A stretch of 34,350 nucleotides of DNA from a virus, in UHGV virus genome UHGV-1648906; one strand, 5' to 3'. A model generated the notes under the pieces. That model made no database searches, had not been told where the DNA came from, and saw nothing but the letters and a program-made list of their open reading frames with translations. The stretch's first letter is position 1, and every line of letters begins with the position of its first letter. Below, piece by piece: positions 1,604 through 28,700 of the stretch. The translations under genes and the position numbers were made by a program.

Positions 1604-3163
1604 CTAATCTCGTTTCAGAACTCCAAAATCGAATGCGCCATCAATAGGCAATACACCTTCTGCAAAGCCAGGTGTGGTGTCGATGATGTGTTTTCGCTCA
1701 TAAGAGTGAGACAACAGGTATTTGTTGCTAATGTCAATGAAATCAGTGATAAAACACACGTTTGCCTGATTCTTCTTGGCTCGTAAGCCACGACCGACAC
1801 GCTGCCTCATTTCAACTTCTGCTTTCCCACCACCAGCCAGAATGACCGCACCAACGCTTGGCACATCAACACCGACATCCAGAATAGTCGAGCCTATTAA
1901 AACATCTATTTCGCCAGACGCTAAACTGTTCAGCTTTGCTTGCCTTGTCGCCTGGTTTGATTCCCCATAGATGAAGTCAACTCTAAGGCCGGACTCCTTC
2001 ATCATCTCCATCAGGATTTGCCCGTGGCGTTTAAGACGAACCAGAGTCATGCAATTGAGAGAATGTTGCTTATAGAGCAATGCTTCGCGCACAATGGCCT
2101 CGTTACGTCCCAAATTATACACGATCCCCAACTGATAAGCCTTTTGGTAGGCTGTGCTCATACCTACTCTAAAATTGAGGTGTTTGTTGGCAAGTTCGGC
2201 CTTGATTCTGGCCTCGTCTGGCTTGTAGGCAACTTTATGATAAAGGAAGTATGGTTTTGCCAGAATGCCTCTATCAATCAGGTACTTTTCCGTGACTTTT
2301 ATTTCAATTCGCCCGGCCACTGCCATCAGGCGCATGTTGGCTTCCGTCGAATCCTTCATGAACGGCGTGGCTGTAAGCGCCAGACGATAGTCTGCGTTCA
2401 CACATAATCTGGCGATGTCATAGAAATTAGAGCCTGAAGACTCATGCGCCTCTTCCAGAATAAGAAGAGAGACACTTGAAAGGAAGCGTTTCACCAACTC
2501 CCGACGTTTGAGGTGGTAGCTTTTCTTATCTGGTGTTGCATCGCGTGGTGGTTCTTCGAGGAAACTTGCAAGAGTTTGAACTGTAGCGACGTTGATATGT
2601 CGTGATACCTGGAACTCACCCGAGCCAATTACTCCAACCTTTTGGTCCTTTAACCACGGTTCGCCATTTTCGGCGCGGTAGTCGATGGATCTCTGGAAGT
2701 TTTCGGCCATTTGAAACATCAGAACAGAGCGGGTTGTTAAAAATAATGTCATTCGACCGATACGTGCAGCTGCTTTGCAGGCAACGTTAGATTTCCCGCC
2801 ACCAGTAGCGATCTGCGCAATCATCATTCCCTCTCGAACCAGTGTTTCTACTGTCTGATCTTGGTACGCATAATCAGGGTTGTATGGAAATGGGTTAACC
2901 GCCGGATTTGGTTTACCCAGCGACGGGGCTTTGTCTTTGCGGATATGAACACATTTGATGCCCGCCTTGTTCAAATTAGCCGCCACGGGCTTGGCAAAGC
3001 CAGCAGGGAACGAGTTTTTGCTCCAGTTGAACATTGTGCTTGTGCCCTTCCAGTCGCCAGCCTCGACTTCGTAGCTCAACATTTGCTGCACCAGTTGCTT
3101 TACCTTGTCATCTGCGCCAGAAATAAGCGCATTTACTGCGTTAGATACAATCCGAACAGTCAT
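1604..3163 (-). CDS. superfamily 2 DNA helicase (DEAD/DEAH-like)
   Basis: 519 aa; Walker A ATGGGKS, motif II LILEEAHE, motif VI QRVGRGLR; Shine-Dalgarno-like AAGAGG (reverse of 3166-3174) upstream of ATG at 3163. Confidence 0.8.
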   Translation of the reverse strand: MTVRIVSNAVNALISGADDKVKQLVQQMLSYEVEAGDWKGTSTMFNWSKNSFPAGFAKPVAANLNKAGIKCVHIRKDKAPSLGKPNPAVNPFPYNPDYAYQDQTVETLVREGMMIAQIATGGGKSNVACKAAARIGRMTLFLTTRSVLMFQMAENFQRSIDYRAENGEPWLKDQKVGVIGSGEFQVSRHINVATVQTLASFLEEPPRDATPDKKSYHLKRRELVKRFLSSVSLLILEEAHESSGSNFYDIARLCVNADYRLALTATPFMKDSTEANMRLMAVAGRIEIKVTEKYLIDRGILAKPYFLYHKVAYKPDEARIKAELANKHLNFRVGMSTAYQKAYQLGIVYNLGRNEAIVREALLYKQHSLNCMTLVRLKRHGQILMEMMKESGLRVDFIYGESNQATRQAKLNSLASGEIDVLIGSTILDVGVDVPSVGAVILAGGGKAEVEMRQRVGRGLRAKKNQANVCFITDFIDISNKYLLSHSYERKHIIDTTPGFAEGVLPIDGAFDFGVLKRD

Positions 3164-3185
3164 AAACCTCTTTCCTTAGTGCCTT

Positions 3186-3230
3186 TTGTATGTTATTTGG
3201 CTATTATAATAAGTAAGTGATTACTTAGTG
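3186..3230. promoter_or_regulatory. divergent promoter region with palindromic -10-like ATTATAAT and adjacent operator-like palindrome
   Basis: TATAAT at 3205-3210, inside the palindromic octamer ATTATAAT (reads the same on both strands); immediately followed by AAGTAA-GTGA-TTACTT (3211-3226). Lies between the divergent helicase and ParB-like genes. Confidence 0.4.
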
Positions 3231-3245
3231 GATTGTAGCAATAAA

Positions 3246-3926
3246 ATGGACGTAAAAATCACGATTTTGCAGGTTGATGTTGCCAACCTTCGCCCGAATA
3301 CCTGGAACACCAATTCGGTTGGTGCGCAGAATTTCGAAAAACTGAAAGGTTCTATCGAAAAATTGGGCTTTTTTAAGCCAATTTTGGCTCGTGAGCTTGA
3401 AGATGGATTTTTTGAAATCCTCGGCGGCGAACATCGCTGGCGTGCTGCTATTGAGCAAGGAATTTCAACGGTTCCTGTGCTTTCTGTGGGCAAAATTAGC
3501 GATGTCGTGGCAAAACAGATGTCACTGGTGGACAACGAGCGATACGGTGAAGACGACCAAATCGCATTGCAACGCTTCATTGAAGAAATTCAGTCAGAAC
3601 TTGACTATCAACTGTCTGAAATCGCCCCGTATGACGACGAAATCTCGATGGTTTTAGCAAAAGAGGCGGCAATCGACCTTGAAGCACTGGAGGCGTTGTC
3701 TCGTGGCGGTGACGAGCCTGTCGATACCGACAAACGAGAGAAAACCGAACGTGTCGGTGCGGAACATCAGACCATGCGCTTCAAAGTAACCTTCGATGCG
3801 TCAGATCGCGTTGCAGAAACCATAAAAAACATCATCAAAGACCAGGCAATTAATACTGGCAATGAAATGGAAAACGCTGGTGAGGCTCTGGTGTGGCTGG
3901 TCGACTACTACAAGGAGCGTATGTAA
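3246..3926 (+). CDS. ParB/Srx-like N-terminal domain protein (ParB-like nuclease domain protein)
   Basis: ParB N-domain pattern around FEILGGEHRWRAAIEQGISTVPV (GxxHRxxA box); stop overlaps the next start (TAATG at 3924-3928). Start uncertain: ATG 3246 or GTG 3228. Confidence 0.7.
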   Translation: MDVKITILQVDVANLRPNTWNTNSVGAQNFEKLKGSIEKLGFFKPILARELEDGFFEILGGEHRWRAAIEQGISTVPVLSVGKISDVVAKQMSLVDNERYGEDDQIALQRFIEEIQSELDYQLSEIAPYDDEISMVLAKEAAIDLEALEALSRGGDEPVDTDKREKTERVGAEHQTMRFKVTFDASDRVAETIKNIIKDQAINTGNEMENAGEALVWLVDYYKERM

Positions 3927-4594
3927 TGACCAAAAAGTTTGAAATCGTATATCGCGACCCGGCAGATCTTATTCCCTATGAGATGAATGCCAAAAAGCAT
4001 GATGAACAGCAGATCCGAGATCTGGCCGCAGCCATTAAAAAGCGCGGATTTGACCAGCCAATTACGGTCGATAAGAACGACGTAATTATTACTGGCCACG
4101 GCCGCCGTGAGGCTGCAATTTTTGCTGGACTTGAGCGCGTACCGGTTATTGTTCGCGATGATCTCAGTGATGACGAGGTTCGTGCGAAGCGTCTTGAAGA
4201 TAACCGACTTGCCAGCATTGATTACGATGCAATTAAGCTACAAAAAGAGCTTGAGTCGCTTGTTCTGGACGATATCGAGGTTTTCGGCTTTGAAGAGCGT
4301 GAGTTGAATGTTCTCGTTGGCAGTATGACAGAAGAAATGGACACCGACTCGCTAGTTATCGATCTTGGCGAAGAAACTAAACGACAGAAGGATGAACACA
4401 CCGAGATCAGTCGTGAAGTTGCAGCGGAAGAAGTACGTGTTGTCGACGTATTGGGCTTTAAAACGCTCCCTGCTGGCTCTGCCATTGTTGTTGGTGATTT
4501 GCTTGCCCATATGGAAGAAATGACGGGAGAAAGCGGGGTAGACGCATTTGTGGCATATGCGGAGAAGATCTCTTCCGGGGAGATGGCTGCATGA
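3926..4594 (+). CDS. second ParB/Srx-like N-terminal domain protein with acidic C-terminal region
   Basis: Motif VIITGHGRREAAIFAGLERVPVIV; SD AAGGAG at 3912-3917; internal ATG at 3926 chosen over the upstream extension of the track ORF. Confidence 0.7.
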   Translation: MTKKFEIVYRDPADLIPYEMNAKKHDEQQIRDLAAAIKKRGFDQPITVDKNDVIITGHGRREAAIFAGLERVPVIVRDDLSDDEVRAKRLEDNRLASIDYDAIKLQKELESLVLDDIEVFGFEERELNVLVGSMTEEMDTDSLVIDLGEETKRQKDEHTEISREVAAEEVRVVDVLGFKTLPAGSAIVVGDLLAHMEEMTGESGVDAFVAYAEKISSGEMAA

Positions 4595-5256
4595 GCAAAT
4601 ACATCATCAACGTATCGTTTCAGACACGCGTAAATAAAACCACGCGCACGTTGGAAATCGCTGAGTCGTTCGGGCTTGGCCTGGACGAAAAAGAGTGGAC
4701 GCTTTACGACAATCTGGAGCTGGAAGTGAAGCAGGGCGATGTGGTGTACATCACCGGCCAATCCGGTTCCGGCAAATCCGTTGTGCTGCGCGAGTTGCAA
4801 CGACAGATGAAGGATGAAGGGCTGTCTGTAGCCTCCATCGATGATTTTACCTTCGATAATGAGGTTAACGTCATCGATCAGTTGGGCAAAACGACCAGCG
4901 ATGCGCTTGGGTTGTTATCTATGGCAGGTCTGAACGATGCATATCTGTTTGTTCGCAAGCCTTCTGAAATGTCAGACGGTCAGAAATATCGTCTCAAGAT
5001 TGCCAAACTGATTGAGTCAGGCGCTAAAGTGTGGGCTGCTGACGAGTTCGGTGCTGTTCTAGACCGTGTAACCGCTCAGGTTGTGGCATCTAACCTCCAG
5101 CGTGCCGCTCGAAAGGTTGGTGCGACGGTAATGGTGGCGACGACTCACGAAGACCTGAAGAACGCGCTGCGCCCGGATATGCAGATCACCAAGCACTACA
5201 AAGAACGCGTGAAGGTGGAATATCACAATGGTAGTCATGATGAGGTTCATTTATGA
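4591..5256 (+). CDS. minimal stand-alone ABC-type ATPase (221 aa)
   Basis: Walker A GQSGSGKS, signature-like MSDGQKYRL, Walker B VWAADEFGAVLD, H-loop VATTHED; ATGA start/stop overlap with the upstream gene. Confidence 0.65.
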   Translation: MSKYIINVSFQTRVNKTTRTLEIAESFGLGLDEKEWTLYDNLELEVKQGDVVYITGQSGSGKSVVLRELQRQMKDEGLSVASIDDFTFDNEVNVIDQLGKTTSDALGLLSMAGLNDAYLFVRKPSEMSDGQKYRLKIAKLIESGAKVWAADEFGAVLDRVTAQVVASNLQRAARKVGATVMVATTHEDLKNALRPDMQITKHYKERVKVEYHNGSHDEVHL

Positions 5257-6143
5257 CGGACATCATCATTAAACGCTACCGCCCTGAAGAGTTTCCGCGT
5301 CATCTGGACTTTCTGGAGCGAATGACTGTCACAAAGGGAACTGTAGAGGACTGGCACGCTCTTAAGTCGCTTCACTACAAAACAGACGGCAAACCTTTCG
5401 CGCCAACTTACTATCGCTGCGAACTTGATGACCGTCTGGTGGGCGTCGTGGTTATGGCTTACCCGAAACTACTGTTGGCACCTCGCCACCGCATGTTTCC
5501 TAAGTTGAAACCAACCACTAATACCACCGTGGCTAACCAGTACTGGGGTCGGTACGTGAATAACAACTTTGCGGTGATCAGTCGCTCAGTTGTGGATACT
5601 CAGTATCGTGGCGTAGGCGTCTCTTATCGAATGATTAACCTGGTTAGCAGGATGCATGACCGGCCAATCATTGAGATCCAGTCCTCGATGAGTAAATACA
5701 ATCCCTTCGCCATGAAAGCAGGGTTTAAGTTCATCCGCCCTGAGCGACCGAAGAGCTATGAAAGTGCACTGCGTGTATTCCAGCGCCATTTCCGTTCCGA
5801 CCCGGGTGATAACGAGGCGATCGTCAAAGAGTTGTTCGCAATGAGCGAGTCTCGTCGTCGCCGTGCACTGCGTGATCTGGTGGCGGACTACCACAAGAAC
5901 AGTTCCCTGGCAAAAGCTGGGCGGAATCGTGGCACGACGATTCAGAACATTGCCGACAGTCTGGTGGACGAGGCCAGCATTGTGAAGCTGCTCAAGGACA
6001 TTCACAACCTGAGCTTTACGTCTCCGTTGTATGGTGTGTATCGAAACCCTGACTTTGGTCGTCGACTGCCTGACACGCTGCCACTGCTGGCATTCGACAA
6101 ACAACCTTTGGATAAACCGTTAGAAATTGCTTTACCGGCATAA
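5253..6143 (+). CDS. hypothetical protein (296 aa); N-terminal half possibly GNAT-fold acyltransferase-like
   Basis: Motif-A-like FAVISRSVVDTQYRGVGVSYRMINLV and NPFAMKAGFKFI; start overlaps upstream stop (coupled). Fold assignment is inference from motifs only. Confidence 0.55.
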   Translation: MTDIIIKRYRPEEFPRHLDFLERMTVTKGTVEDWHALKSLHYKTDGKPFAPTYYRCELDDRLVGVVVMAYPKLLLAPRHRMFPKLKPTTNTTVANQYWGRYVNNNFAVISRSVVDTQYRGVGVSYRMINLVSRMHDRPIIEIQSSMSKYNPFAMKAGFKFIRPERPKSYESALRVFQRHFRSDPGDNEAIVKELFAMSESRRRRALRDLVADYHKNSSLAKAGRNRGTTIQNIADSLVDEASIVKLLKDIHNLSFTSPLYGVYRNPDFGRRLPDTLPLLAFDKQPLDKPLEIALPA

Positions 6144-6152
6144 GGATTTGCC

Positions 6153-6419
6153 ATGACGTTAACCGATAAACAAAAGGACATTATCAAAACGCTCAATCTC
6201 GGTTATGAGCGAGGTCATTTACTTGATCTGGACGAATTGCTTGAAGTTTTGCCGTACAAGACAACCAAGCAAAGTATCCAGTTCTCAATTCGCGCTCTGA
6301 TAAAAAAGGGGCTGGTGGAGAAAGGGCATACGCGCCAACGCAGTGACAATCGCTATCACCGCCGAACTCTTGGGTTAACCACTTTAGGTCGAGCCAAAGC
6401 GAAGTTACTGGTGATGTAA
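6153..6419 (+). CDS. small winged-helix DNA-binding protein (88 aa), putative transcriptional regulator
   Basis: SD AAGGA at 6143-6147; helix-turn-helix-like segment TKQSIQFSIRALIKKGLVEKG with basic C-terminus; last gene of the coupled cassette. Confidence 0.55.
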   Translation: MTLTDKQKDIIKTLNLGYERGHLLDLDELLEVLPYKTTKQSIQFSIRALIKKGLVEKGHTRQRSDNRYHRRTLGLTTLGRAKAKLLVM

Positions 6420-6421
6420 TC

Positions 6422-6520
6422 GGTCTGGGAGCTTATTTAAAGACCTGCTTCTGTATATATAAATAATAAGTAACTTATTAAATATATACGGAAGCAGGCT
6501 TAATAAGACATGCCCAGACC
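6422..6520. repeat. ~100-bp imperfect palindrome (nested inverted repeat)
   Basis: Outer arms GGTCTGGG (6422-6429) and CCCAGACC (6513-6520); inner arms CCTGCTTCTGTATATAT versus ATATATACGGAAGCAGG; centre ATAAGTAACTTAT (6465-6477). Confidence 0.7.
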
Positions 6521-6537
6521 TAATTAAACACCCCAGA

Positions 6538-6609
6538 AAACAAGTTGGTTAGCAGATGCAGTAAACAAGTTGTTTTAGAGCGCATGGACGCGCTCTGTGT
6601 GTTTTAGAG
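6538..6609 (+). promoter_or_regulatory. direct repeats plus hairpin upstream of terS; candidate packaging or regulatory site, or attenuator
   Basis: AAACAAGTTG at 6538-6547 and 6563-6572; GTTTTAGAG at 6572-6580 and 6601-6609; hairpin AGAGCGC-ATGGAC-GCGCTCT (6577-6596) followed by GTGTGTTTT. Confidence 0.4.
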
Positions 6610-6615
6610 GGATCT

Positions 6616-7248
6616 ATGACGGTCGAAAAAGACGAGGTAAAAACTCGCCTGACACCAGCGGAGTGGGCCGAAGCTGAAGCCAAATGGACGTCAGGCGAAT
6701 ATACACTCTCAAAGCTGGAGGAAGAGTACGGCATTCGTCGTGAAACACTCTCCAGACATTTCAAAAAGCGAGGATTAGAGAAAGGCGCGGACTCTGTTGG
6801 GAAGATGGTTCGTGAGTCTCTTAAATCTGACGCAGAGCTTCGCGCTAAAGCCCGTGCGGAAAAGATAGAAGAACGTCGTACACGTTATGACGGCTGGGCG
6901 TATGCGTTGGGGCAGATGGTGATGGTCGAAGTCACTACGGCCAAACGTGAGAGTAAGCCTTTAGGGGCGATTGAGGATTCTCTCAAGAGCTTACAGAGAG
7001 CCAGTAATACCCTTGCAAAATGCTTTGAAGTTTCGTCCAAAGCATTGGGCATGGATCATGCGGAAAATGACGAGGAAGAAATTCCGAACCTGGTATTTGG
7101 TGAGCTTACACCTTCCCAGGTGGCGAAATTACGTCAGGAAGACGACGAGCCTGAAATCATCGATGACGAATTGCTTGAGACGTTGGAAGAAGAAGCTCTA
7201 AGCGAATTTGATGCGACAGATGATGGAAGTGAAGGGGAGGACGAATAA
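6616..7248 (+). CDS. terS: terminase small subunit (putative)
   Basis: Directly upstream of and overlapping terL (TAATG); HTH-like segment YTLSKLEEEYGIRRETLSRHFKKRG; strongly acidic C-terminus. Confidence 0.6.
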   Translation: MTVEKDEVKTRLTPAEWAEAEAKWTSGEYTLSKLEEEYGIRRETLSRHFKKRGLEKGADSVGKMVRESLKSDAELRAKARAEKIEERRTRYDGWAYALGQMVMVEVTTAKRESKPLGAIEDSLKSLQRASNTLAKCFEVSSKALGMDHAENDEEEIPNLVFGELTPSQVAKLRQEDDEPEIIDDELLETLEEEALSEFDATDDGSEGEDE

Positions 7249-8504
7249 TGGCAATCCCGTCCTCGCTCAGTCTTGTGCAACTGCATTCTGGACAGATGAA
7301 AGTCTTCCAGTCTCCGCATCGATTTAAAGTTGTTTGTGCTGGTCGACGCTGGGGAAAATCCCGGTTGTCGATCTCCACTATTATTCGTGCGGCGGCAAAG
7401 GAAAAAAAGCAAAGGGTCTGGTATGTCGCTCCTACTTACCAGATGGCTCGCCAGATTTTGTGGGACGATCTACAGGAAGTTCTGCCTCGTAAGTGGGTTA
7501 GGAAAAAGAACGACACCACGATGACAATCGTGTTGAAGAACGGTTCGGAGATCGCCCTCAAAGGTGCTGATAAGCCTGACACTCTGCGCGGCGTAGCGTT
7601 GCATTTTGTAGTGCTTGATGAATTTCAGGATATGAAGGCTGACACCTGGTACAAGGTGTTACGACCTACTCTTTCATCGACACGCGGCGGTGCACTGATC
7701 ATTGGTACGCCAAAAGGCTTCTCGGAATTTCACAAACTGTGGACTATAGGCCAGAACGTAGAGCTGCAAAGAAAGGGACAGTGGAAGAGCTGGCAGTTTG
7801 TAACTGCCGATTCTCCGTTTGTACCTACGGCGGAAATTGAAGCTGCTAAGAACGATATGGACCCCAAATCGTTCGCTCAGGAGTACCTGGCCAGCTTTGA
7901 GAACATGTCCGGGCGCGTTTACTACCCGTTCGATCGTAACGTGCATGTAAAACCGCTTCAGTTCAACCCTCGGTTGCCTATATGGGTAGGGCAGGACTTC
8001 AACATTGACCCGATGTCTTCAGTAATTTTGCAACCTCAGCCAAATGGTGAGCTATGGGCAATTGATGAATTGGTGCTCTTTTCCTCTAACACGGCAGAAG
8101 TTTGTGATGAGCTTGAGAGACGCTTCTGGCGCTGGAAATCACAGGTAACGGTATTTCCAGATCCGGCAGGTGCTTATCGCCAACATGCTCGTGGGGAGTC
8201 TGACGTAGACATATTCAAAGAGAAGGGATTCTTACGTGTCGATTATTCGAAAAAGCACCCGCCAATTGCGGATCGCGTTAATGCTGTTAACCGAATGCTG
8301 ATGTCCGCATCTGGAGATATCCGGCTGTATATCGATCCGAAGTGCAAGCATTTGATTGATTCACTGGAAAAAGTTATCTACAAGCCTGGAACACGAGATA
8401 TGGATAAGACAGGTGGCATTGAGCATAGTGCAGACGCATTGGGCTATCCAGTACATCGTAGGTATCCAGTCAAAAACCGTGTTATTCTTGGTGGTTCTCG
8501 ATAG
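7248..8504 (+). CDS. terL: terminase large subunit
   Basis: 418 aa; Walker A VVCAGRRWGKS, Walker B FVVLDEF, acidic nuclease-like C-terminal half; SD GGGGAGGA upstream. Confidence 0.85.
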   Translation: MAIPSSLSLVQLHSGQMKVFQSPHRFKVVCAGRRWGKSRLSISTIIRAAAKEKKQRVWYVAPTYQMARQILWDDLQEVLPRKWVRKKNDTTMTIVLKNGSEIALKGADKPDTLRGVALHFVVLDEFQDMKADTWYKVLRPTLSSTRGGALIIGTPKGFSEFHKLWTIGQNVELQRKGQWKSWQFVTADSPFVPTAEIEAAKNDMDPKSFAQEYLASFENMSGRVYYPFDRNVHVKPLQFNPRLPIWVGQDFNIDPMSSVILQPQPNGELWAIDELVLFSSNTAEVCDELERRFWRWKSQVTVFPDPAGAYRQHARGESDVDIFKEKGFLRVDYSKKHPPIADRVNAVNRMLMSASGDIRLYIDPKCKHLIDSLEKVIYKPGTRDMDKTGGIEHSADALGYPVHRRYPVKNRVILGGSR

Positions 8505-8520
8505 GTAAGTAATTATCTAA
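8503..8520. promoter_or_regulatory. intergenic palindromic element TAGGTAAGTAATTATCTA (terL-portal gap)
   Basis: One mismatch from the 11928-11945 copy; ends about 10 bp before the portal start codon. Confidence 0.5.
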
Positions 8521-8530
8521 GGTTATTCAA

Positions 8531-10105
8531 ATGGAATTGAACGACAAACAAATTAAGGATCTGGTGGCGCGACGCCACCCGGAATACGAAAAGAAAAAAG
8601 AACATTGGGACTTCCTCGCCAGCACTTACGCTGGCGGGCGTGGTTGGTTTACAGACAATATCTTTCGTTACTTTAAAGAGGGAGATCAGGAGTTTAAGGA
8701 GCGTGTTGAGCGTGCCTATCGCTTCAACCACACTCGTGAGGTGGTAAACCTCATCAACAAATATCTCTTTAAAGAAGACATTAATAGAAATATCGAAGAG
8801 GCACCAGAGCAGATCCGCAATTTCTGGAAACGTGCGACTCGCCAGAATGCCTCTATTGACTCATTTATGGCCGCCATTGATTTGCAATCGTCAATCTACG
8901 GCCGTATCTGGGTTGTTGTTGATAGCACAATGAGTGGTGATGTTGAGTCAGTAGCTGACGAGAAAAAGAAAGATGCTCGTGCCTACGCCTACTGGATTTC
9001 ACCTCAGCAAATGCTGGATGTGGCATGGGACGACGACGGGAATATGTTATGGGCGTTAATTGTGGAAGTCGCTCGCGATGACGCAGATCCTTTTACTTCT
9101 ACAGGTCAGGAATACCAACGTTATCGTCTGTGGACACAAAACGAGTGGTATCTGTTCCGTGAGGAAGTGAAGAAGGGGGCTGGTGGAGCAGGTCGTCGTC
9201 AGGCAAAAGTTATTTTAGAGGACAGCGGCGCGCATAATCTCGGCGTAGTTCCTGTGTTTCCTGTTGATTGTATTGGAGAAAGTGAATCACCGTATTTCAG
9301 CCCATCGTTGATCGATGATATCGCTTATCTTGATCGTGCGGTTGCAAACTATCTGTCAAACCTTGATGCCATTATTCAGGATCAGACATTTAGCCAGTTG
9401 GCTATACCGGTACAGTCGCTTTTACCTGGTGATGAAAACCACACTAAAGTGCTTGAAATGGGCACAAAGCGAGTCTTCACCTACGATTCTGAAGGTGGAA
9501 ACCAGCCGTTTTATCTGTCACCAGACCCGAAACAAGCTCAGATGATCATCACTACGATTAAGACGGTGATTAACGAAATCTACCATTCAGTTGGTGTAGC
9601 TGGTGAGCGAACGAAGCAGGACAACGCACAGGGAATCGATAATTCATCTGGTGCCGCAAAAATGTATGACTTCCAGCGTGTAAATAGCTTGCTTGTCACA
9701 AAAGCAGAGCGTCTGGAAAGGGCTGAACGCCAAATCATGCTACTGGTTGCGAAATGGATGGGGGTAGATCTGGACGAAGACCACTCTTTAATTGCGTATC
9801 CAGAAAGTTTCGATATTCGTGGCCTTACAGATGAATTTTCTGTTGCCGAGAAACTGTCATTACTTCAGGCACCGGACTCTGTACGTCGTCACCAGATGGA
9901 AATGCTTATTGAGAAGATTTTCCCGAACATTACTGAGGCGATGAAAAAGGAATTTGATAAAGATCTCTTGAATTTTCCTCCAAAAAATGATCTAAATACC
10001 CTTGAAAATAAGTCAGTACTTACTTATGATCGTGGTGCAGCCCAAGAAAGCGGGCAAGATCAACCCCGAGGGAATGGGGACTCATCTACTCAAGAGAACG
10101 AGTGA
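8531..10105 (+). CDS. portal protein
   Basis: 524 aa; position between terL and scaffold/capsid genes; size and acidic C-terminus typical of portals. Family not identified. Confidence 0.7.
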   Translation: MELNDKQIKDLVARRHPEYEKKKEHWDFLASTYAGGRGWFTDNIFRYFKEGDQEFKERVERAYRFNHTREVVNLINKYLFKEDINRNIEEAPEQIRNFWKRATRQNASIDSFMAAIDLQSSIYGRIWVVVDSTMSGDVESVADEKKKDARAYAYWISPQQMLDVAWDDDGNMLWALIVEVARDDADPFTSTGQEYQRYRLWTQNEWYLFREEVKKGAGGAGRRQAKVILEDSGAHNLGVVPVFPVDCIGESESPYFSPSLIDDIAYLDRAVANYLSNLDAIIQDQTFSQLAIPVQSLLPGDENHTKVLEMGTKRVFTYDSEGGNQPFYLSPDPKQAQMIITTIKTVINEIYHSVGVAGERTKQDNAQGIDNSSGAAKMYDFQRVNSLLVTKAERLERAERQIMLLVAKWMGVDLDEDHSLIAYPESFDIRGLTDEFSVAEKLSLLQAPDSVRRHQMEMLIEKIFPNITEAMKKEFDKDLLNFPPKNDLNTLENKSVLTYDRGAAQESGQDQPRGNGDSSTQENE

Positions 10106-24141: not shown

Positions 24142-25740
24142 TTGAACATGTATCAGTTCAAGAAAAAGAGATTGCCCCTCCTGATTGCGGGAGCGGGCGG
24201 CAAAAAGAGCTCAGGCTCAAGCCGTACACCAGTTGAAGCGGATGATACCGTTAATTCGCGGGCCATGGCGTCTATCCTCGATCTGCTCGGGGAAGGTGTT
24301 GTTGGTGGGCTTATTAACGGTGCTAAATCTATCTTCATCGATGGCGTGGCGCTGGAGAACGAAGACGGATCATTCAACTATTCCGGTGTAACCTGGGATT
24401 TCCGGGATGGTTCACAAGACCAAAGCCCGATGCCTGGTTTCGATTTTGTCGAAACGCCAAAGGCCGTTAACACACAGCTGAAAACCACAAACGCGGTTAC
24501 GGTCGCCATCGATAACGACGACGCTGATCGTGTCCGAGTGATCATGAAGTTCCCGTCGCTGCGTAGCATTGACAAGAAAACAGGGGACACAAACGGTACT
24601 TCTGTCCAGTTTAAGTTCCAGCTGGCCAATGGCAATGGCTCTTTCTATGACGTGATTGCTACAGGTGAGAGCAGCTCTGACGTGAAGCTGACTGCGAAAA
24701 AGACTGGTGTCTACTACCGCAGTTACGAAATCCAACTTCCAAAGCCTGGGCGCGCCTATAAAGTGCGCGTGCTTCGTCTCTCCGCCGACAGCAACGATCA
24801 GTATCTCTTTAACGATACCTGGGTCGACTCTATCGGTGAGATCGTTGACACCCCAATGAACTACCCGAACTCCGTTCTGGTTGGCCTTAAGGTTAACTCT
24901 GAGCAGTTTGGTAGCTCTATGCCGTCACGTTCGTATCTTATCCGTGGCCTCAAAATCCGTGTGCCTTCGAATTATGATGAAAATACGAACACTTATAACG
25001 GCGTTTGGGATGGAACCTTTAAGCTTCTGTCGTCTTCCAACCCTGCCTGGATTCTGTTCGATCTGCTGACCAATGCTCGTTACGGCCTCGGCAAATTTGT
25101 TTCGGAGTCAATGATTGACCTTGGCCAGCTTTATCAGATCGGTCGCTACTGCGACGAAGAGGTTGATGATGGCTTTGGCGGCAAAGAAAAACGCTTTGCA
25201 ATCAACACCCAGATCACCAGTCGTCAGGACGCTTATCGTCTGATTCAGGATATTGCCGGCGCTTTCCGTGGCATGGTTTTCTGGGCTGGTGGTATGGTGA
25301 ATATCATGCAGGACAGCCCGTCTGACCCTGTCATGCTCTTTACCAATGCGAACGTAAAAGATGGCCTGTTTACCTATAAAGGCTCAGCTCGAAAAGACCG
25401 GCCGTCCGTAGCGTTGATCACTTATAACAACAAACAAGACGGCTATAAGCAGAACGTTGAGTATGTTGAAGATCAGGAAGCGATGGCCCGATACGGGGAG
25501 CGCAAGACCGAGGCCGTTGCGTTCGGGTGCACCAGCCGAGGTCAGGCTCATCGTGTAGGTTTGTGGCTGCTCTATACCGCGCGTATGGAGTCAGACATGA
25601 TCACCTTTACCGCGGGCCTGGACGCCTCGTTCCTGATGCCGGGCGAAACCGTTCTGATTCAGAACAAATATCGTGCCGGCAAACGCAATTCCGGTCGCAT
25701 TGTCTCTCGATGCACCTGTCTCTCTGAAAAAGAGCGGTAG
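24142..25740 (+). CDS. host specificity (tip attachment) protein J-like, N-terminal part; reading frame ends prematurely after an apparent frameshift
   Basis: Recalled lambda J similarity: GVTWDFRDGSQDQSPMPGFD, PNSVLVGLKVNSEQFGS, FGCTSRGQAHRVGLWL, KYRAGKRNSGRI; the frame-1 stop at 25738-25740 follows a short out-of-frame tail (SRCTCLSEKER). Confidence 0.85.
   Translation: MNMYQFKKKRLPLLIAGAGGKKSSGSSRTPVEADDTVNSRAMASILDLLGEGVVGGLINGAKSIFIDGVALENEDGSFNYSGVTWDFRDGSQDQSPMPGFDFVETPKAVNTQLKTTNAVTVAIDNDDADRVRVIMKFPSLRSIDKKTGDTNGTSVQFKFQLANGNGSFYDVIATGESSSDVKLTAKKTGVYYRSYEIQLPKPGRAYKVRVLRLSADSNDQYLFNDTWVDSIGEIVDTPMNYPNSVLVGLKVNSEQFGSSMPSRSYLIRGLKIRVPSNYDENTNTYNGVWDGTFKLLSSSNPAWILFDLLTNARYGLGKFVSESMIDLGQLYQIGRYCDEEVDDGFGGKEKRFAINTQITSRQDAYRLIQDIAGAFRGMVFWAGGMVNIMQDSPSDPVMLFTNANVKDGLFTYKGSARKDRPSVALITYNNKQDGYKQNVEYVEDQEAMARYGERKTEAVAFGCTSRGQAHRVGLWLLYTARMESDMITFTAGLDASFLMPGETVLIQNKYRAGKRNSGRIVSRCTCLSEKER
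25695..25712 (+). other. frameshift junction within the J-like gene (TCTCTC dinucleotide run)
   Basis: Frame 1 reads GRIVSRC then stops; frame 2 reads LSLDAPVSLKKSGSFIRI and continues as the J-like protein; the sequence at the junction is GTCTCTCGATG. Confidence 0.6.
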
Positions 25741-28700
25741 CTTCATCCGTATCATCAATCAGGAAGGCAAAATCGTTGAGCGAGACATCAACGAGACCGG
25801 CGACAACATCACTAAAGTTACCTTCAAGACGGCGTTGGCCACAGCCGATCAACCAGTAGCGAATGGCGTCTGGACGATCACCGAACCAGACCTTGTTCCA
25901 ATGCGGGCGCGCGTTGTCGCTATCGCGCAAGGTGAAACCCCGGGGTCGTTTGATATCACGGTGGTGCAGAACAATGCATCTAAGTACCAGGCGATTGATA
26001 ACGGGGCCGCGCTCGTTCCAGAAAATACGACGGTTCTTGATCCCACATATTCCAAACCGAGCAACCTGGTCATCTCAGAAGGCACCTATCTGTCCAGTCC
26101 GGGCAACTTGTCCGTGAAGCTGATGCTTGCCTGGGAAGGTAAATCACCAGAATACTGGGTCAGCTGGCGCCGCTCCGACGAGGGCAACGTCTCCAACTGG
26201 CAATCTGCCCGCGCCACGGAAGAACAATATGAAATCGTCAATGTTGCCGAAAATGGGCGATATGACTTCCAGCTGTATTCCGTTTCCTTCGGCGGCAAAA
26301 AATCCGAGATCATTACTGCTGTCTATCAGGTAAAAGGCACGATGACGCCGCCAGGGGCGCCCACATCACTCACCGCGGTGGGGGATTATCGTAACGTGGT
26401 ATTGAATTGGGTTAACCCTGATTCAGTCGACCTCGCGCAGATCAACGTGTATGCGTCCAAAACAAATAAGCTGGACACCGCAACACTCATTGCTCAGGCT
26501 GCAACAACGACTTTCACTCACGCTGGCCTGGGTGACAACGAGACCTGGTATTACTGGATTCGTGCGGTAAACAAACGTGGGATGGTAGGCCAGCCGAACT
26601 CGAACCTCGGTACAGAGGCCACCACTCGCGACGTATTGTCTTTCCTGAAAGATAAGATCACATCTTCTGAACTCGGCAAGGAGCTGCTCGACGAAATCGA
26701 CAGCAAAGCCACTCAGGAGGCGGTAGACAACGCCATTGGCGAGGTTCAGAACTCAGTCAACGAGTCTATCCAGCAAGTTGAAAACGATCTGGCGCAAACC
26801 TCCTCCGAAATTAAGGCGCAGGTTGACTCTGTCAATCAGTCGCTGAAAGAGGATATAAAGACCGTCAATCAGACGATTGTTGACAACATCGATACCGTCA
26901 ACCAGACGATCAATACCAACATCTCCAACGTAAACAGCCAAATTGAAGCTGCAAAACAGTCTATTAAAGACGGCGACGCGGCTCTGTCGCAGGAGATTAA
27001 GAATGCGCAGTCATCACTGACAACGTCGCTGTCCCAGACCAGCAAAGATCTGACTGCGGCCATTCAGAAAGAGACGAATGACCGTATTGCAGATGTTAAT
27101 GACGCAGCCAAGCAAGCGGCCGACCAACTGCTGAGCGCGAAGAATGAGCTGAAAACCTCTATCGATAGCTTGTCTGAGGTTGTGACCTCCGGTGACGAAA
27201 ACCTCGCGCGACAGATCTCGCAGATTGCCGCTGGCACAGGGGAACAGTTTGACTCTCTGAAAATCTGGTATTTCGACCAGGACGCTGAAGGCTGGACGGA
27301 AGATGATAATGGCTACACGCCAATGAGCGTCACCAGCGATGGCTGGCTGAAAGCGAACAATCCGACCTCAACCTGTCGTTCCCCTAACGGCTTGACGATC
27401 GATGCCCATGCTTATCGTTTCATTAAGATGCGCATTAAAAAGGTTGGCAACCCAACCTGGAACGCCAAAATGTTCTGGATCGGCGCTGATGAAACCGGCT
27501 GGAATGCTGGTCGCTCCGTGGTTATCAATGAACCGGAATACGATGACAAGGGTATTGCGATTCTGACCCTGCACGACATTGAGTGGCGAGATTCGACAAC
27601 GATTCGTCGTTTCCGCTTCGATTTCACTTCAGGTCAGGATGCGGACAATTACCTGTTATTCGACTGGATCGCCGTCGGTCGACCGACGCCGGGCGCAGGC
27701 ATGGCCGCGTTACAGGAAGAGCAGCAGGCTCGTGCGAATGCAGATACCGCCGAAGCGCAGGCGCGCAGCACATTGGCTGCACAAATCCGCGGTTCCTCTG
27801 AAAGCGGAAATCTGGACGACATTCGCTCCGGTCTGATCTATCAGGAGAAAAATGCTCGTATCACCGCCGATGCTGCGGAAGCGAGTGCGCGTGAATCCCT
27901 GCAGACTGAATTCAACAGAAACAAAGCCTCTGTTGCAGAAGAGCTGCATACGCTGTCCACTGAACAAGCTTCCCAGGCAAGCAAGATTACCGGGTTGCAA
28001 ACAAGCCTTGGCCAGAAGGCCGATGCCAGTGCAGTACAGACAATTTCCCAGAAGGTTGAAGAGCAGGGCAACACCCTTAAATCACAAGGTGCGGCATTGT
28101 CTACGCTGGATAATCGCGTAGGAAGTGTTGAGTCTGGTGTGTCTGCGAATAGCAAGGCGATCACGGGTCTGCAGTCGACCGTAACCCAGCAGGATAAAAC
28201 CCTTAGCAGCCAGAGTGAAAGCATCACCACCCTGAATAACTCGCTGAGCGATATCCAGAGCGATACCGATACTGCCAAAAGCAATCCGAGCAATTTGCTG
28301 GTTAACGCCTCCTTTGAGCGTGACCTGGCAGGGTGGTCTGCAGGGAACAGCGTATCCAATGTTATCAAAGCGAGTGCGCCCCATTCTGGTAGCAAAATTC
28401 TTGTTTGCGCCGCTGGCACGGTGCAAATCACGCAATCTGTAAGCGTCGTCGAAGGGCGGACATACAAGCTGTCCTCTTTTGTGCGCTGCACCACGGATGC
28501 GGTAATCAGCAGCCCTGGCAACAACAAACTGCGTATTGGCGCAGCCACGTTGCTCAAAGAGATTCCGATCCGTCCGGAGAATCTGCCCAAAGATGAAACA
28601 TGGAAAGAGATCTCTGATACCTGGAAGGCGACGCTGACCGGTAAAGTTGACGTATCGATCATGTCTTCTCTCAAAACCGGTTCTCAGTACTTCGATGATA

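Follow-up and report, generated by a model that had tools for sequence, protein, structure and literature searches.

The SSU5-type E. coli phage-plasmid analysed here carries a cassette of five genes, encoding two ParB-like proteins (ParB1 and ParB2), an ABC ATPase, a GNAT-fold protein and a winged-helix protein, within a stretch of 34,350 nucleotides (the window). Comparison with relatives shows that the ABC ATPase and the GNAT protein are two halves of one predicted enzyme, because they form one polypeptide in many other viruses, and that ParB-like domains are part of the same unit, since some viruses have them fused to it and others next to it. We propose, at somewhat less than an even chance, that the cassette is a virus-specific, ParB-assisted, ATP-dependent acyltransferase that would act on viral DNA after its replication and ahead of packaging. 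This reading is based throughout on comparative genomics and predicted structure. Among the candidate roles listed in the initial annotation, DNA modification gains most from the evidence.

The features of the cassette and its surroundings are listed in Table 1. The placement between a replication and a packaging module holds, with the helicase gene on one side and the TerS-like, TerL and portal genes on the other. All five proteins belong to populated PHROG families. The initial annotation described five consecutive genes with overlapping start and stop codons; this is correct for the first four, which share three overlaps, but the fifth gene follows the fourth stop codon after a 9-nt spacer. 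Overlaps of 1 or 4 nt occur at 6 of the 29 same-strand junctions in the whole window, three of the six being the consecutive ones of the cassette, and at 3 of the 26 junctions outside it. The chance of three successive overlaps is estimated at about 0.0015 for one position and about 0.04 over the window, which is unusual but not extreme. The promoter of the cassette presumably lies in the 82-nt divergent region that separates ParB1 from the helicase gene, where a sigma-70 consensus was not found.

Table 1. Features of the cassette and adjoining regions (positions in the window)
Feature	Position (nt)	Strand	Remarks
DEAD/UvsW-type helicase gene	1604-3163	-	divergent from cassette
Divergent intergenic region	3164-3245		82 nt, helicase gene to ParB1
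ParB1 gene	3246-3926	+	226 aa
ParB1 box GGEHRWRAA	3423-3449
ParB1 motif DNERYG	3531-3548
Overlap TAATG	3924-3928		ParB1/ParB2
ParB2 gene	3926-4594	+	222 aa
ParB2 box TGHGRREAA	4091-4117		in ParB/Srx N-domain
Overlap ATGA	4591-4594		ParB2/ABC ATPase
ABC ATPase gene	4591-5256	+	221 aa
Walker A GQSGSGKS	4756-4779	+	ABC ATPase
Q-loop IDQLG			ABC ATPase
Signature-like MSDGQ	4969-4983	+	ABC ATPase
Walker B VWAADEF	5029-5049	+	ABC ATPase
D-loop AVLD			ABC ATPase
H-loop ATTHED	5137-5154	+	ABC ATPase
Overlap ATGA	5253-5256		ABC ATPase/GNAT-fold protein
GNAT-fold protein gene	5253-6143	+	296 aa
Motif HYK	5373-5381		GNAT-fold protein
GNAT motif A	5607-5624		acyl-CoA
Motif YG.Y.NP	6030-6053		GNAT-fold protein
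Winged-helix protein gene	6153-6419	+	88 aa
AT-rich imperfect palindrome	6421-6522		~100 nt, directly 3' of cassette
Possible late-operon control region	6538-6605
AAACAAGTTG, two exact copies	6538-6547, 6563-6572	+	in region 6538-6605
GC-rich stem-loop and T-run	6576-6597 and following	+	just upstream of TerS-like start
TerS-like, TerL and portal genes	6616-10105		downstream of cassette
TerS-like gene	6616-7248	+	210 aa; N-terminal HTH-like, acidic C-terminus; phrog_867 'DNA binding domain'
Large terminase subunit (TerL) gene	7248-8504	+	Pfam Terminase_6N and Terminase_6C; conserved neighbour of the module

The presence of two different ParB/Srx N-domain proteins was confirmed by both boxes and by matches to Pfam ParB_N (PF02195) above the gathering score (ParB1, E 3.3e-13; ParB2, E 1.3e-8); the proteins also match phrog_723 (E 2e-78) and phrog_930 (E 1e-112), respectively. 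ParB1 is acidic (pI 4.5); an acidic linker joins its N-domain to a conserved C-terminal domain (~50 aa) with the motif NAG[DE]AL. Its closest solved relatives in the PDB are Spo0J, CTP-bound ParBs and Noc, and the phmmer alignment with Spo0J reaches residue 154, across the acidic segment. ParB2 is also acidic, and its N-domain is of a kind that phage DNA methyltransferases carry N-terminally: it matches phrog_498 'DNA methyltransferase' (E 1.7e-31, profile positions 31-179) and PADLOC MTase_II PDLC03229 (E 2.9e-17). A methyltransferase domain is absent from ParB2. Neither ParB1 nor ParB2 has a detected DNA-binding domain or a Pfam match to HTH_ParB.

RefSeq calls ParB1 a 'ParB/RepB/Spo0J family partition protein', and in E. 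coli the element is a plasmid in 255 of 255 places. If the cassette were a prophage-plasmid partition system, ParB1 and ParB2 would bind a centromere and the ABC ATPase would be the motor. We regard this as highly improbable, since it is already contradicted by the type of the ATPase, by occurrence outside plasmids and by a separate ParF/ParA-type ATPase; the initial annotation had likewise set the block apart from classical partition loci. Although the ParB_N domain is common to the cassette and ParABS, the cassette has no detected HTH_ParB and no ParA-type (deviant Walker A) ATPase, its sole ATPase being of the ABC type. On p09EL50, a 99%-identical E. coli plasmid and thus the same replicon type, the ParF/ParA-type ATPase lies ~78 kb from the cassette. 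Nor is the module restricted to plasmids: phage nickie carries the cassette, which is also found inside a 3.27-Mb chromosomal contig (L003), and archaeal proviruses have the module. In psageB1, a close relative of nickie, temperate behaviour was not observed (PMC8537276).

The ABC ATPase is minimal and soluble (Pfam ABC_tran, E 5.8e-13). Its motifs are complete and in order (Walker A, Q-loop, signature, Walker B, D-loop, H-loop), including the four that had been read from the sequence at the outset. In the PDB, the domain is nearest in sequence to transporter-type nucleotide-binding domains, not to ABC ATPases that bind DNA, such as Rad50, RecF or UvrA. A membrane protein or permease partner is encoded neither in the cassette nor in any syntenic relative. 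The protein is orthologous to the N-terminal half of fused ABC-GNAT proteins; judged by these fusions, its partner is the GNAT protein and not a permease.

The 296-aa protein is basic (pI 9.9); no other protein of the cassette is as well conserved or under purifying selection as strong. A GNAT fold is predicted with confidence. GNAT-like motifs had been assigned to the N-terminal half; the fold is indeed present, but it is not confined to that half and takes in the whole 296 aa. The binding motif for the acyl-CoA pyrophosphate, motif A (Q/R-x-x-G-x-G/A), reads R119-G-V-G122-V-S124; R119 and G122 do not vary across 35 homologues and the fused forms, in which residue 124 is S, A or G. HYK and YG.Y.NP are further invariant motifs, and both the acyl-CoA-binding motif and many polar GNAT-domain residues are unchanged from bacteria to archaea. 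A helical insertion of ~90 aa occupies about residues 165-255, and by the order of secondary structure the strands that follow it (259-264 and 275-277) take the place of the last two GNAT strands.

The 88-aa protein is small and basic, and its predicted winged-helix fold (H1-H2-H3-beta hairpin-H4; AF2 pLDDT 82), which had been proposed earlier, agrees with Foldseek matches in the PDB to MepR, MarR and the small archaeal wHTH proteins APE_0880a and AF1382 (TM 0.7-0.78). It belongs to phrog_900, and its position is kept in SSU5/nickie-type relatives only. The palindrome directly downstream has a DNA fold of -27.9 kcal/mol (z -10.5), and the linear ends of the GenBank records of SSU5 and Cyrano lie near its centre. 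The two repeats and the stem-loop that follow are arranged in the same way in SSU5, and this region is possibly a control region of the late operon. The next gene is named TerS-like by its position; its product has no PDB match, and its stop codon overlaps the TerL start.

Fusions in distant relatives tie the components together. The ABC ATPase and the GNAT protein form a single polypeptide of 450-500 aa (COG2401) in (pro)viruses of Bathyarchaeia and Planctomycetota. A profile search gave 903 matches, many with ABC_tran N-terminal to the match, and the loci numbered 52 genomic and 471 viral. The cassette ABC protein matches the fused ORFs at E 1e-47 to 1e-61 in Bathyarchaeia loci and more weakly elsewhere (to ~1e-20), and the cassette GNAT protein matches those ORFs at E 1e-7 to 1e-20. 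Four proteins of 666-699 aa (P0198, P0221, P0222 and P0227) are fusions of the triple type, ParB+Zn-ribbon+ABC+GNAT; they match PHROG ParB families at E 1e-12 to 1e-17, and their N-termini are matched by HMMs built from the families of cassette ParB1 and ParB2. In one lineage ABC+GNAT is also fused to the replicative DNA polymerase PolB (exonuclease and polymerase; P0204), inside the replication module of at least 24 contigs, and there is a fusion with a DnaA-like ATPase (P0200). Archaeal fused forms have no adjacent ParB, which suggests that ParB is not essential to the core enzyme. The initial annotation had taken the five genes as one functional unit. This is supported for ParB, ABC and GNAT by the fusions, whereas the winged-helix protein is linked only by conserved position in one lineage.

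The unit adjoins the large terminase gene in at least five unrelated virus lineages. Among 101 fused-type loci, 50 have TerL directly upstream on the same strand and 62 have it within three genes, and in many lineages the junction is often a 4-nt overlap or an 8-nt gap. Planctomycetota loci have an adjacent ParB with TerL nearby, and a triple-fusion locus (L223) has the order fusion gene, 158-aa gene, TerL, portal. The module is present in 248 of 5,426 complete E. coli genomes and, more broadly, in SSU5/pHCM2-type phage-plasmids of E. coli, Klebsiella and Salmonella, in large siphoviruses of Pseudomonas, Rhizobium, Stenotrophomonas and Xanthomonas, and in the Planctomycetota and Bathyarchaeia (pro)viruses described above. 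The module is core and not accessory: every relative examined has it, at a fixed position. The GenBank record of PhiR41_1 gives E. coli K-12 MG1655 as host.

How might such a unit work? ATP-driven dimerisation of the ABC protein would position or gate two GNAT domains on double-stranded DNA, and the enzyme would put an acyl-CoA-derived group onto replicated phage DNA shortly before packaging. The outcome may be comparable to that of Mom of phage Mu, and the modification would shield phage DNA from host nucleases. The acidic ParB1 and ParB2, each with a nucleotide-binding N-domain and a small C-terminal domain but no detected HTH, could serve as activators or tethers, by analogy with the ParB-like partners of phage thymine dioxygenases. 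The winged-helix protein may bind specific DNA sequences near the downstream palindrome or regulate the adjacent late operon. The PolB fusion, the terminase linkage and the basic pI are indirect pointers to DNA as the substrate. Phage ParB-like proteins without a DNA-binding domain have been described as obligate activators of a post-replicative DNA-modifying enzyme on double-stranded DNA, and terminases are among the commonest neighbours of ParB-activated modification loci (PMC13229309). N-domains of the ParB2 type are fused to phage DNA methyltransferases (PMC12704722). An earlier proposal, as cited in PMC8256090 (Iyer et al. 2013), was that ParB directs modification machinery during packaging. 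Against DNA acylation stand the literature searched, which contains no report of a modified base in SSU5-type or nickie-type phages, a likeness to Mom that goes no further than the GNAT superfamily, the similarity of the ABC domain to transporter-type domains, the ParBs without a detected DNA-binding domain, the archaeal fused forms with no ParB beside them and the proximity of TerL, which fits a packaging role equally well. The broader claim, that ParB-ABC-GNAT is an unrecognised, packaging-coupled, ATP-driven DNA acylation machinery of bacterial and archaeal tailed viruses that makes an acyl-type base modification so far undescribed from these phages, is possible but doubtful.

The acyl group might instead go to proteins. 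Alba and HU bind DNA less tightly when acetylated, and a protein acetyltransferase acting on DNA-bound proteins (host nucleoid proteins such as HU, H-NS or, in archaea, Alba and histones; the terminase; or the portal) would clear or license DNA for packaging; linkage to terminase, ParB and polymerase fits any DNA-localised activity. We think this unlikely, because no candidate substrate was found and one module serves bacteria and archaea, yet their chromatin proteins differ. The precedents for phage enzymes partnered by ParB are also DNA-base modifiers (PMC13229309, PMC12704722).

A role without catalysis has a smaller chance. By analogy with ParB-SMC, the ABC dimer and the ParB-like proteins could be an ATP/CTP-driven DNA clamp or condenser that presents concatemeric DNA or the pac region to TerS/TerL, with the GNAT domain structural or regulatory. 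Such a packaging accessory would explain the module directly beside TerL in many lineages, the 100-nt palindrome next door, where two phage records were linearised, and the complete ABC motifs, but the invariant acyl-CoA-binding motif and polar GNAT residues argue for catalysis, the PolB fusion within the replication module is hard to reconcile with it, and the phage has its own TerS-like gene. Still less probable is an anti-defence or host-takeover effector that acylates an immune component, a signalling nucleotide, an antibiotic-like molecule or aminoacyl-tRNA, its position reflecting operon history. Inactivation of small molecules is common among GNAT enzymes, and aminoacyl-tRNA is acetylated by GNAT toxins. 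In PHROG, both the ABC family and the GNAT family are classed as 'moron, auxiliary metabolic gene and host takeover', and relatives carry small accessory genes between the ABC and GNAT genes. However, the module is core, as noted above, and contains the most conserved protein of the cassette, the ParB and PolB fusions point to DNA, and the GNAT protein has no matches to PADLOC or anti-defence families.

If acylation of DNA is correct, the cassette would represent a new type of phage DNA-modifying enzyme, which combines an ABC ATPase with a GNAT fold and is assisted by ParB folds, and the newly shown ability of ParB-like proteins to activate such enzymes would be widened by a second chemistry. 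An acyl modification would then be present on the phage-plasmids that ~5% of E. coli strains with complete genomes carry. Where the DNA of these elements is modified, their sensitivity to restriction, their signals in sequencing and their host range would be affected. Should the module prove to be an accessory of the terminase or a protein acetyltransferase localised on DNA, a conserved and unstudied step in the maturation of virion DNA would still be at hand.

The combination had been regarded as no named system. We found no paper describing a ParB-ABC-GNAT module, but its proteins are in PHROG families and the ABC+GNAT fusion is already labelled COG2401 / PHROG 293+886 ('ABC-type ATPase fused to a predicted acetyltransferase domain', MK0520-like), a descriptive label with no assigned function and no paper found. 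The cassette is the split form of COG2401, as its ABC and 296-aa proteins share the ATPase motifs, GNAT motifs and domain order (HMM matches 1e-20 to 1e-60) but are encoded by two translationally coupled genes instead of one. TmcA/NAT10, ATP-dependent nucleic-acid cytidine acetyltransferases, are analogous in combining a P-loop ATPase with a GNAT domain that acts on a nucleic-acid base; their ATPase is helicase-type and not ABC, their substrate is RNA, and no homology to the cassette was detected. Mom of phage Mu, a GNAT-related DNA adenine methylcarbamoylase (PDB 8bv8), shows no sequence-level homology to the 296-aa protein (~12% identity): the similarity (10-14% identity) is at the level of the GNAT superfamily, and many protein or small-molecule acetyltransferases score equally. 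Mom has no ATPase or ParB partner, and the 90-aa helical insertion is a feature of the 296-aa protein. A bacterial, GTP-binding ParB-CTPase-acetyltransferase fusion (PMC12704722), likened here by its description, also joins a ParB fold to an acetyltransferase, whereas an ABC ATPase and a viral or terminase context are not described for it. Phage thymine dioxygenases (5mYOX plus ParB activator; PMC13229309) resemble the cassette in having a ParB-like protein without a DNA-binding domain beside the enzyme, with a nucleotide-binding N-domain and a small C-terminal domain, and a terminase frequently nearby; the cassette differs in that the partner is an ABC ATPase and GNAT instead of an Fe/2OG dioxygenase and in having two different ParB paralogues. 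Phage ParB-DNA methyltransferase fusions (phrog_498, PDLC03229; PMC12704722) are matched by ParB2 over their first ~150 residues, and the triple fusions, whose N-domain matches phrog_498 at E 1e-14 to 1e-18, carry ABC-GNAT where phrog_498 proteins carry the methyltransferase. The cassette has no methyltransferase, and its effector would rely on acyl-CoA and ATP and not on SAM.

The cassette belongs to a phage-plasmid lineage. Over its 3,174 nt, identity is 99.0-99.3% with Escherichia phages CMS-2020a, PhiR41_1 and Cyrano, 85% with Salmonella phage SSU5 and 81% with Klebsiella SSU5-like elements. The region was found in 248 of the 5,426 complete E. coli genomes in RefSeq and was plasmid-borne in every case; the plasmids were 110-116 kb among the matches listed. 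Therefore, the window is a piece of an SSU5/pHCM2-type phage-plasmid. A divergent helicase gene lies upstream of the cassette, and a 196-nt gap, a TerS-like gene, TerL and a portal gene follow it. The initial annotation described five consecutive genes with overlapping start and stop codons. The overlaps TAATG, ATGA and ATGA are present, but they join four genes, not five; the 88-aa gene starts 9 nt past the 296-aa gene. Overlaps of 1 or 4 nt occur at 6 of the 29 same-strand junctions of the window, and three of these six are the consecutive ones in the cassette. Thus the tight coupling is genuine, yet just moderately unusual in this genome. Scans of the window detected no tRNA and no Rfam family. 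The window breaks off at its 3' end within an open frame that is at least 2,897 codons long. This frame, an ordinary feature of SSU5-type elements, has matches to central tail fibre J and to phrog_2589, a family of giant tail proteins with a profile of 3,686 positions.

Features of the window and of compared loci (L-numbers) named in the text
Feature	Sequence	Position	Strand	Remark
DEAD/UvsW-type helicase	window	1604-3163	-	divergent, upstream of cassette
ParB1	window	3246-3926	+	ORF listing and direct reading
ParB1 C-terminal domain	window	3741-3923	+	motif NAG[DE]AL
ParB2	window	3926-4594	+	ORF listing and direct reading
ParB2 C-terminal domain	window	4420-4591	+	motif FGF ... TG..G..A
ABC ATPase	window	4591-5256	+	ORF listing and direct reading
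296-aa protein	window	5253-6143	+	ORF listing and direct reading
88-aa protein	window	6153-6419	+	ORF listing and direct reading
Gene overlaps TAATG, ATGA, ATGA	window	3924-3928; 4591-4594; 5253-5256	+	
AT-rich imperfect palindrome, about 100 nt	window	6421-6522		between cassette and TerS-like gene; DNA fold -27.9 kcal/mol, z -10.5
Two exact AAACAAGTTG copies	window	6538-6547; 6563-6572 (within 6538-6605)		25 nt apart start to start; upstream of TerS-like gene
GC-rich terminator-like stem-loop with T-run	window	within 6538-6605, past AAACAAGTTG copies		directly upstream of TerS-like start codon
Giant tail frame	window	25658-34350		continues past 3' end
ABC/GNAT junction insertion (SSU5_128)	L002	7977-8231		
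ABC/GNAT junction insertion	L004	8961-9999		
ABC/GNAT junction insertion	L138	5393-5895		
ABC/GNAT junction insertion	L222	6676-7011		
PolB-ABC-GNAT fusion P0204	L226	8001-11783		1,260 aa
p09EL50 side genes (ParF locus, toxin-antitoxin, DfrA51)	L229; L228	28207-29234, 29553-30351; 32177-32653		

Pfam, motif and structure analyses agreed with all five domain assignments made from the sequence alone. ParB1 and ParB2 each score above the Pfam ParB_N gathering threshold, and their nearest solved relatives are Spo0J, CTP-bound ParBs and Noc. Only the N-domain is recognised in both; the remainder is an acidic linker and a C-terminal domain, which is conserved and about 50 aa long. A ribbon-helix-helix fold had been proposed by eye for these C-terminal domains from a beta-alpha-G-alpha pattern. 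It was unsupported: hhalign of the two C-terminal profiles gave a probability of 1.7%, a PDB profile search with the domains found nothing, and Pfam scans of nine ParB members detected no RHH family. A homologue search with ParB1 returned only variants of 85-99% identity. ParB2 has no methyltransferase domain; its match is to the N-terminal 150 or so residues of proteins in which phages fuse ParB to a methyltransferase (phrog_498, E 1.7e-31; PADLOC MTase_II, E 2.9e-17). The ATPase carries all of the ABC motifs, and its sequence is nearest to transporter-type nucleotide-binding domains. Databases name it an ABC transporter, which we reject as there is no permease; the same name is given wrongly to the 296-aa protein, which is not an ABC transporter because it lacks a P-loop and folds as a GNAT. 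This protein matched nothing in Pfam, NCBIfam or PADLOC, and sequence and profile searches of the PDB gave no meaningful match. Its AlphaFold2 model from a 35-sequence alignment is confident (pLDDT 88, pTM 0.81), and the order of its secondary-structure elements indicates one GNAT domain, whose last two strands follow a helical insertion at about 165-255. The motif that binds the acyl-CoA pyrophosphate is intact (R119-x-x-G122-x-S124, the last position being S, A or G among homologues). The 296-aa protein is basic (pI 9.9) and both ParB proteins are acidic (pI 4.5). The 88-aa protein is modelled as a winged helix (pLDDT 82), with a TM of 0.7-0.78 to wHTH proteins of the MarR/MepR type and to small archaeal ones.

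The gene order is kept in all eight distant relatives examined, which upholds the expectation that it would be conserved. These have GNAT-like proteins about 40-50% identical to the 296-aa protein, and comprise one locus within a 3.27-Mb metagenome contig, one in an Ectothiorhodospira genome contig, Pseudomonas phage nickie, Rhizobium phage RHEph10 and four metagenomic contigs. The shared order is the helicase on the minus strand, ParB, ParB, ABC, zero to three small inserted genes, the GNAT-like protein, a protein of about 87 aa and a gap, after which come a TerS-like protein of about 210 aa, TerL and portal. This collinearity shows that the genes of the whole region have been retained in the lineage; alone it is no proof of joint working. 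No other member is as well conserved as the 296-aa protein, which has 96-98% identity in elements of Klebsiella and Salmonella with cassette DNA just 81-85% identical; in the Klebsiella versions ParB1 is about 86% and the wHTH protein about 76% identical. A scan of IMG/VR with profiles of the split form returned only near-identical SSU5-type loci; the diverse homologues came from look-ups of single distant homologues. The junction of the ABC and GNAT genes is a hot spot in relatives for the insertion of small genes, with Phage_gp49_66, RyR, DUF2829 and other ORFs. SSU5 has an 84-aa gene there; the window has none, and its two genes overlap directly.

Gene fusions bear out the claim of one functional unit for the ParB, ABC and GNAT parts of the cassette. 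A profile search of 1.84 billion representative proteins gave 903 hits for the 296-aa family, and many of these are 450-500 aa long, with an N-terminal ABC_tran domain followed by the GNAT match. Their ATPase halves carry the distinctive N-terminal segment of the window ATPase and an LSDGQ-type signature; thus the ABC and GNAT genes of the window are a split form of COG2401, a label which several source annotations give as 'ABC-type ATPase fused to a predicted acetyltransferase domain'. In addition, four proteins of 666-699 aa (P0198, P0221, P0222, P0227) combine ParB-like, zinc-ribbon, ABC and GNAT parts. The N-termini of these triple fusions match PHROG ParB families (E 1e-12 to 1e-17) and are also matched by HMMs from the ParB1 and ParB2 families of the window. 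In P0204, a family-B DNA polymerase with exonuclease and polymerase domains is joined to ABC and GNAT; it is encoded in a replication module, beside a 5'-3' exonuclease, Prim-Pol and RecA, and occurs on at least 24 contigs. A DnaA-like ATPase is joined to ABC and GNAT in P0200. As judged by sequence, the ParB-like, ABC and GNAT parts are one unit, repeatedly attached in evolution to proteins that handle viral DNA (ParB, polymerase, terminase). In one fused ABC-GNAT protein (P0165, 847 aa), an intein with a LAGLIDADG homing endonuclease splits the ABC domain.

The module is also linked to terminase. GTDB genomes and IMG/VR supplied 101 loci of the fused type. With TerL called by Pfam Terminase_6N/6C, 50 of these loci have it directly upstream in the same orientation and 62 have it at most three genes away. 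Spacing between TerL and the fusion gene is often 8 nt, or a 4-nt overlap. Most of these loci are Bathyarchaeia proviruses with the fusion gene last among the viral genes. In proviruses of this type (L005-L136; e.g. L072, L078, L081-L083, L124, L125), TerL and ABC-GNAT are usually the last viral gene pair and come after the tail genes, and many IMG/VR provirus boundaries lie directly beyond. Planctomycetota loci have an adjacent ParB gene and, within a few genes, a TerL of another sequence cluster; yet another TerL cluster occurs at most two genes upstream in Gemmataceae and Alcaligenaceae loci. At L223, a triple-fusion locus, the order is fusion gene, a 158-aa gene, TerL, portal (PF04860) and Mu-F, which is the layout of the window in an unrelated virus. 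At least five TerL sequence clusters are involved, and therefore the terminase association is not inherited synteny. By these comparisons, the module is far more widely spread, and its tie to terminase closer, than could be seen from the window.

Only in the SSU5/nickie lineage does the wHTH gene keep its position, and it was never found fused, so that its membership of the unit is the weakest. The protein may act on the gap region as a putative late-operon regulator or site-specific DNA binder. The GenBank records of SSU5 and Cyrano both begin and end near the centre of the palindrome in this gap. Either a pac region or a physical end could lie here, or assemblies may simply break at this point. 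Beyond it, the AAACAAGTTG repeats and the stem-loop resemble a late promoter or antitermination region, and their arrangement is kept in SSU5. AAACAAGTTG is not enriched across the window (3 matches against 3.5 expected).

A role in partition is very improbable. The view that this is not a classical partition locus held up, as no ParA-type ATPase is present in the cassette and HTH_ParB was not detected there. We also reject partition because of where else the module is found: in archaeal proviruses, inside a large chromosomal contig and in phage nickie, whose close relative psageB1 was not seen to be temperate (PMC8537276). The E. coli plasmid p09EL50 (NC_018651.1), which is 99% identical, has a ParF/ParA-type ATPase about 78 kb from the cassette. 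It matches TP228 ParF over its full length (E 1.2e-10), and with the small ORF next to it is likely the true partition locus. p09EL50 also carries a DUF1778/GNAT toxin-antitoxin pair, unrelated to the cassette GNAT, and a gene annotated as the trimethoprim-resistant dihydrofolate reductase DfrA51.

We tentatively read the cassette as a DNA-modification system that transfers an acyl group to viral DNA, and put its chance somewhat short of even. An (ABC-GNAT)2 enzyme would close on DNA upon ATP binding, the ParB-like subunits might activate or tether it, by analogy with the ParB-like partners of dioxygenases, and a group derived from acyl-CoA would be passed to DNA ahead of packaging. Several things suggest DNA as the substrate: fusions of ParB to methyltransferases are a parallel, the unit is fused to PolB, the GNAT protein is strongly basic, and Mom, one of the top structural matches, is a precedent for a DNA modifier with a GNAT fold. 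On the other hand, the likeness to Mom is at superfamily level only, the ABC domain is like transporter nucleotide-binding domains and not DNA-binding ABC proteins, and the literature searched reports no modified base in these phages. Terminase proximity suits a role in packaging equally well. Among the rival readings, a protein acetyltransferase localised on DNA is unlikely, and a packaging accessory that acts without catalysis is a little less likely than that; the conserved acyl-CoA motif argues against the latter. An unrelated anti-defence effector is less probable still, set beside the repeated attachment of the module to DNA-handling proteins.

The literature offers precedents among phage ParB-like proteins. 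O'Toole et al. 2026 (PMC13229309) showed such proteins to be obligate activators of post-replicative thymine dioxygenases, which act on double-stranded DNA. In these activators the N-domain binds nucleotide, the C-terminal domain serves dimerisation and a DNA-binding domain is absent, and the commonest neighbours of the dioxygenases include ParB (27%) and terminase (19%). Kaljević et al. 2025 (PMC12704722) found the phage ParB-CTPase fold fused most often to DNA methyltransferases and noted one bacterial ParB-acetyltransferase fusion, which binds GTP. Iyer et al., as cited by Burke et al. 2021 (PMC8256090), proposed that ParB directs modification machinery during packaging. The papers of O'Toole, Kaljević and Burke do not mention an ABC-GNAT effector, and we found no published description of the ParB-ABC-GNAT module in the literature, Iyer et al. 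2013 (NAR 41:7635) not being covered. In summary, the cassette, with its inferred function and putative ATP-dependent GNAT chemistry, is best filed as a variant among the ParB-assisted phage DNA-modification loci.
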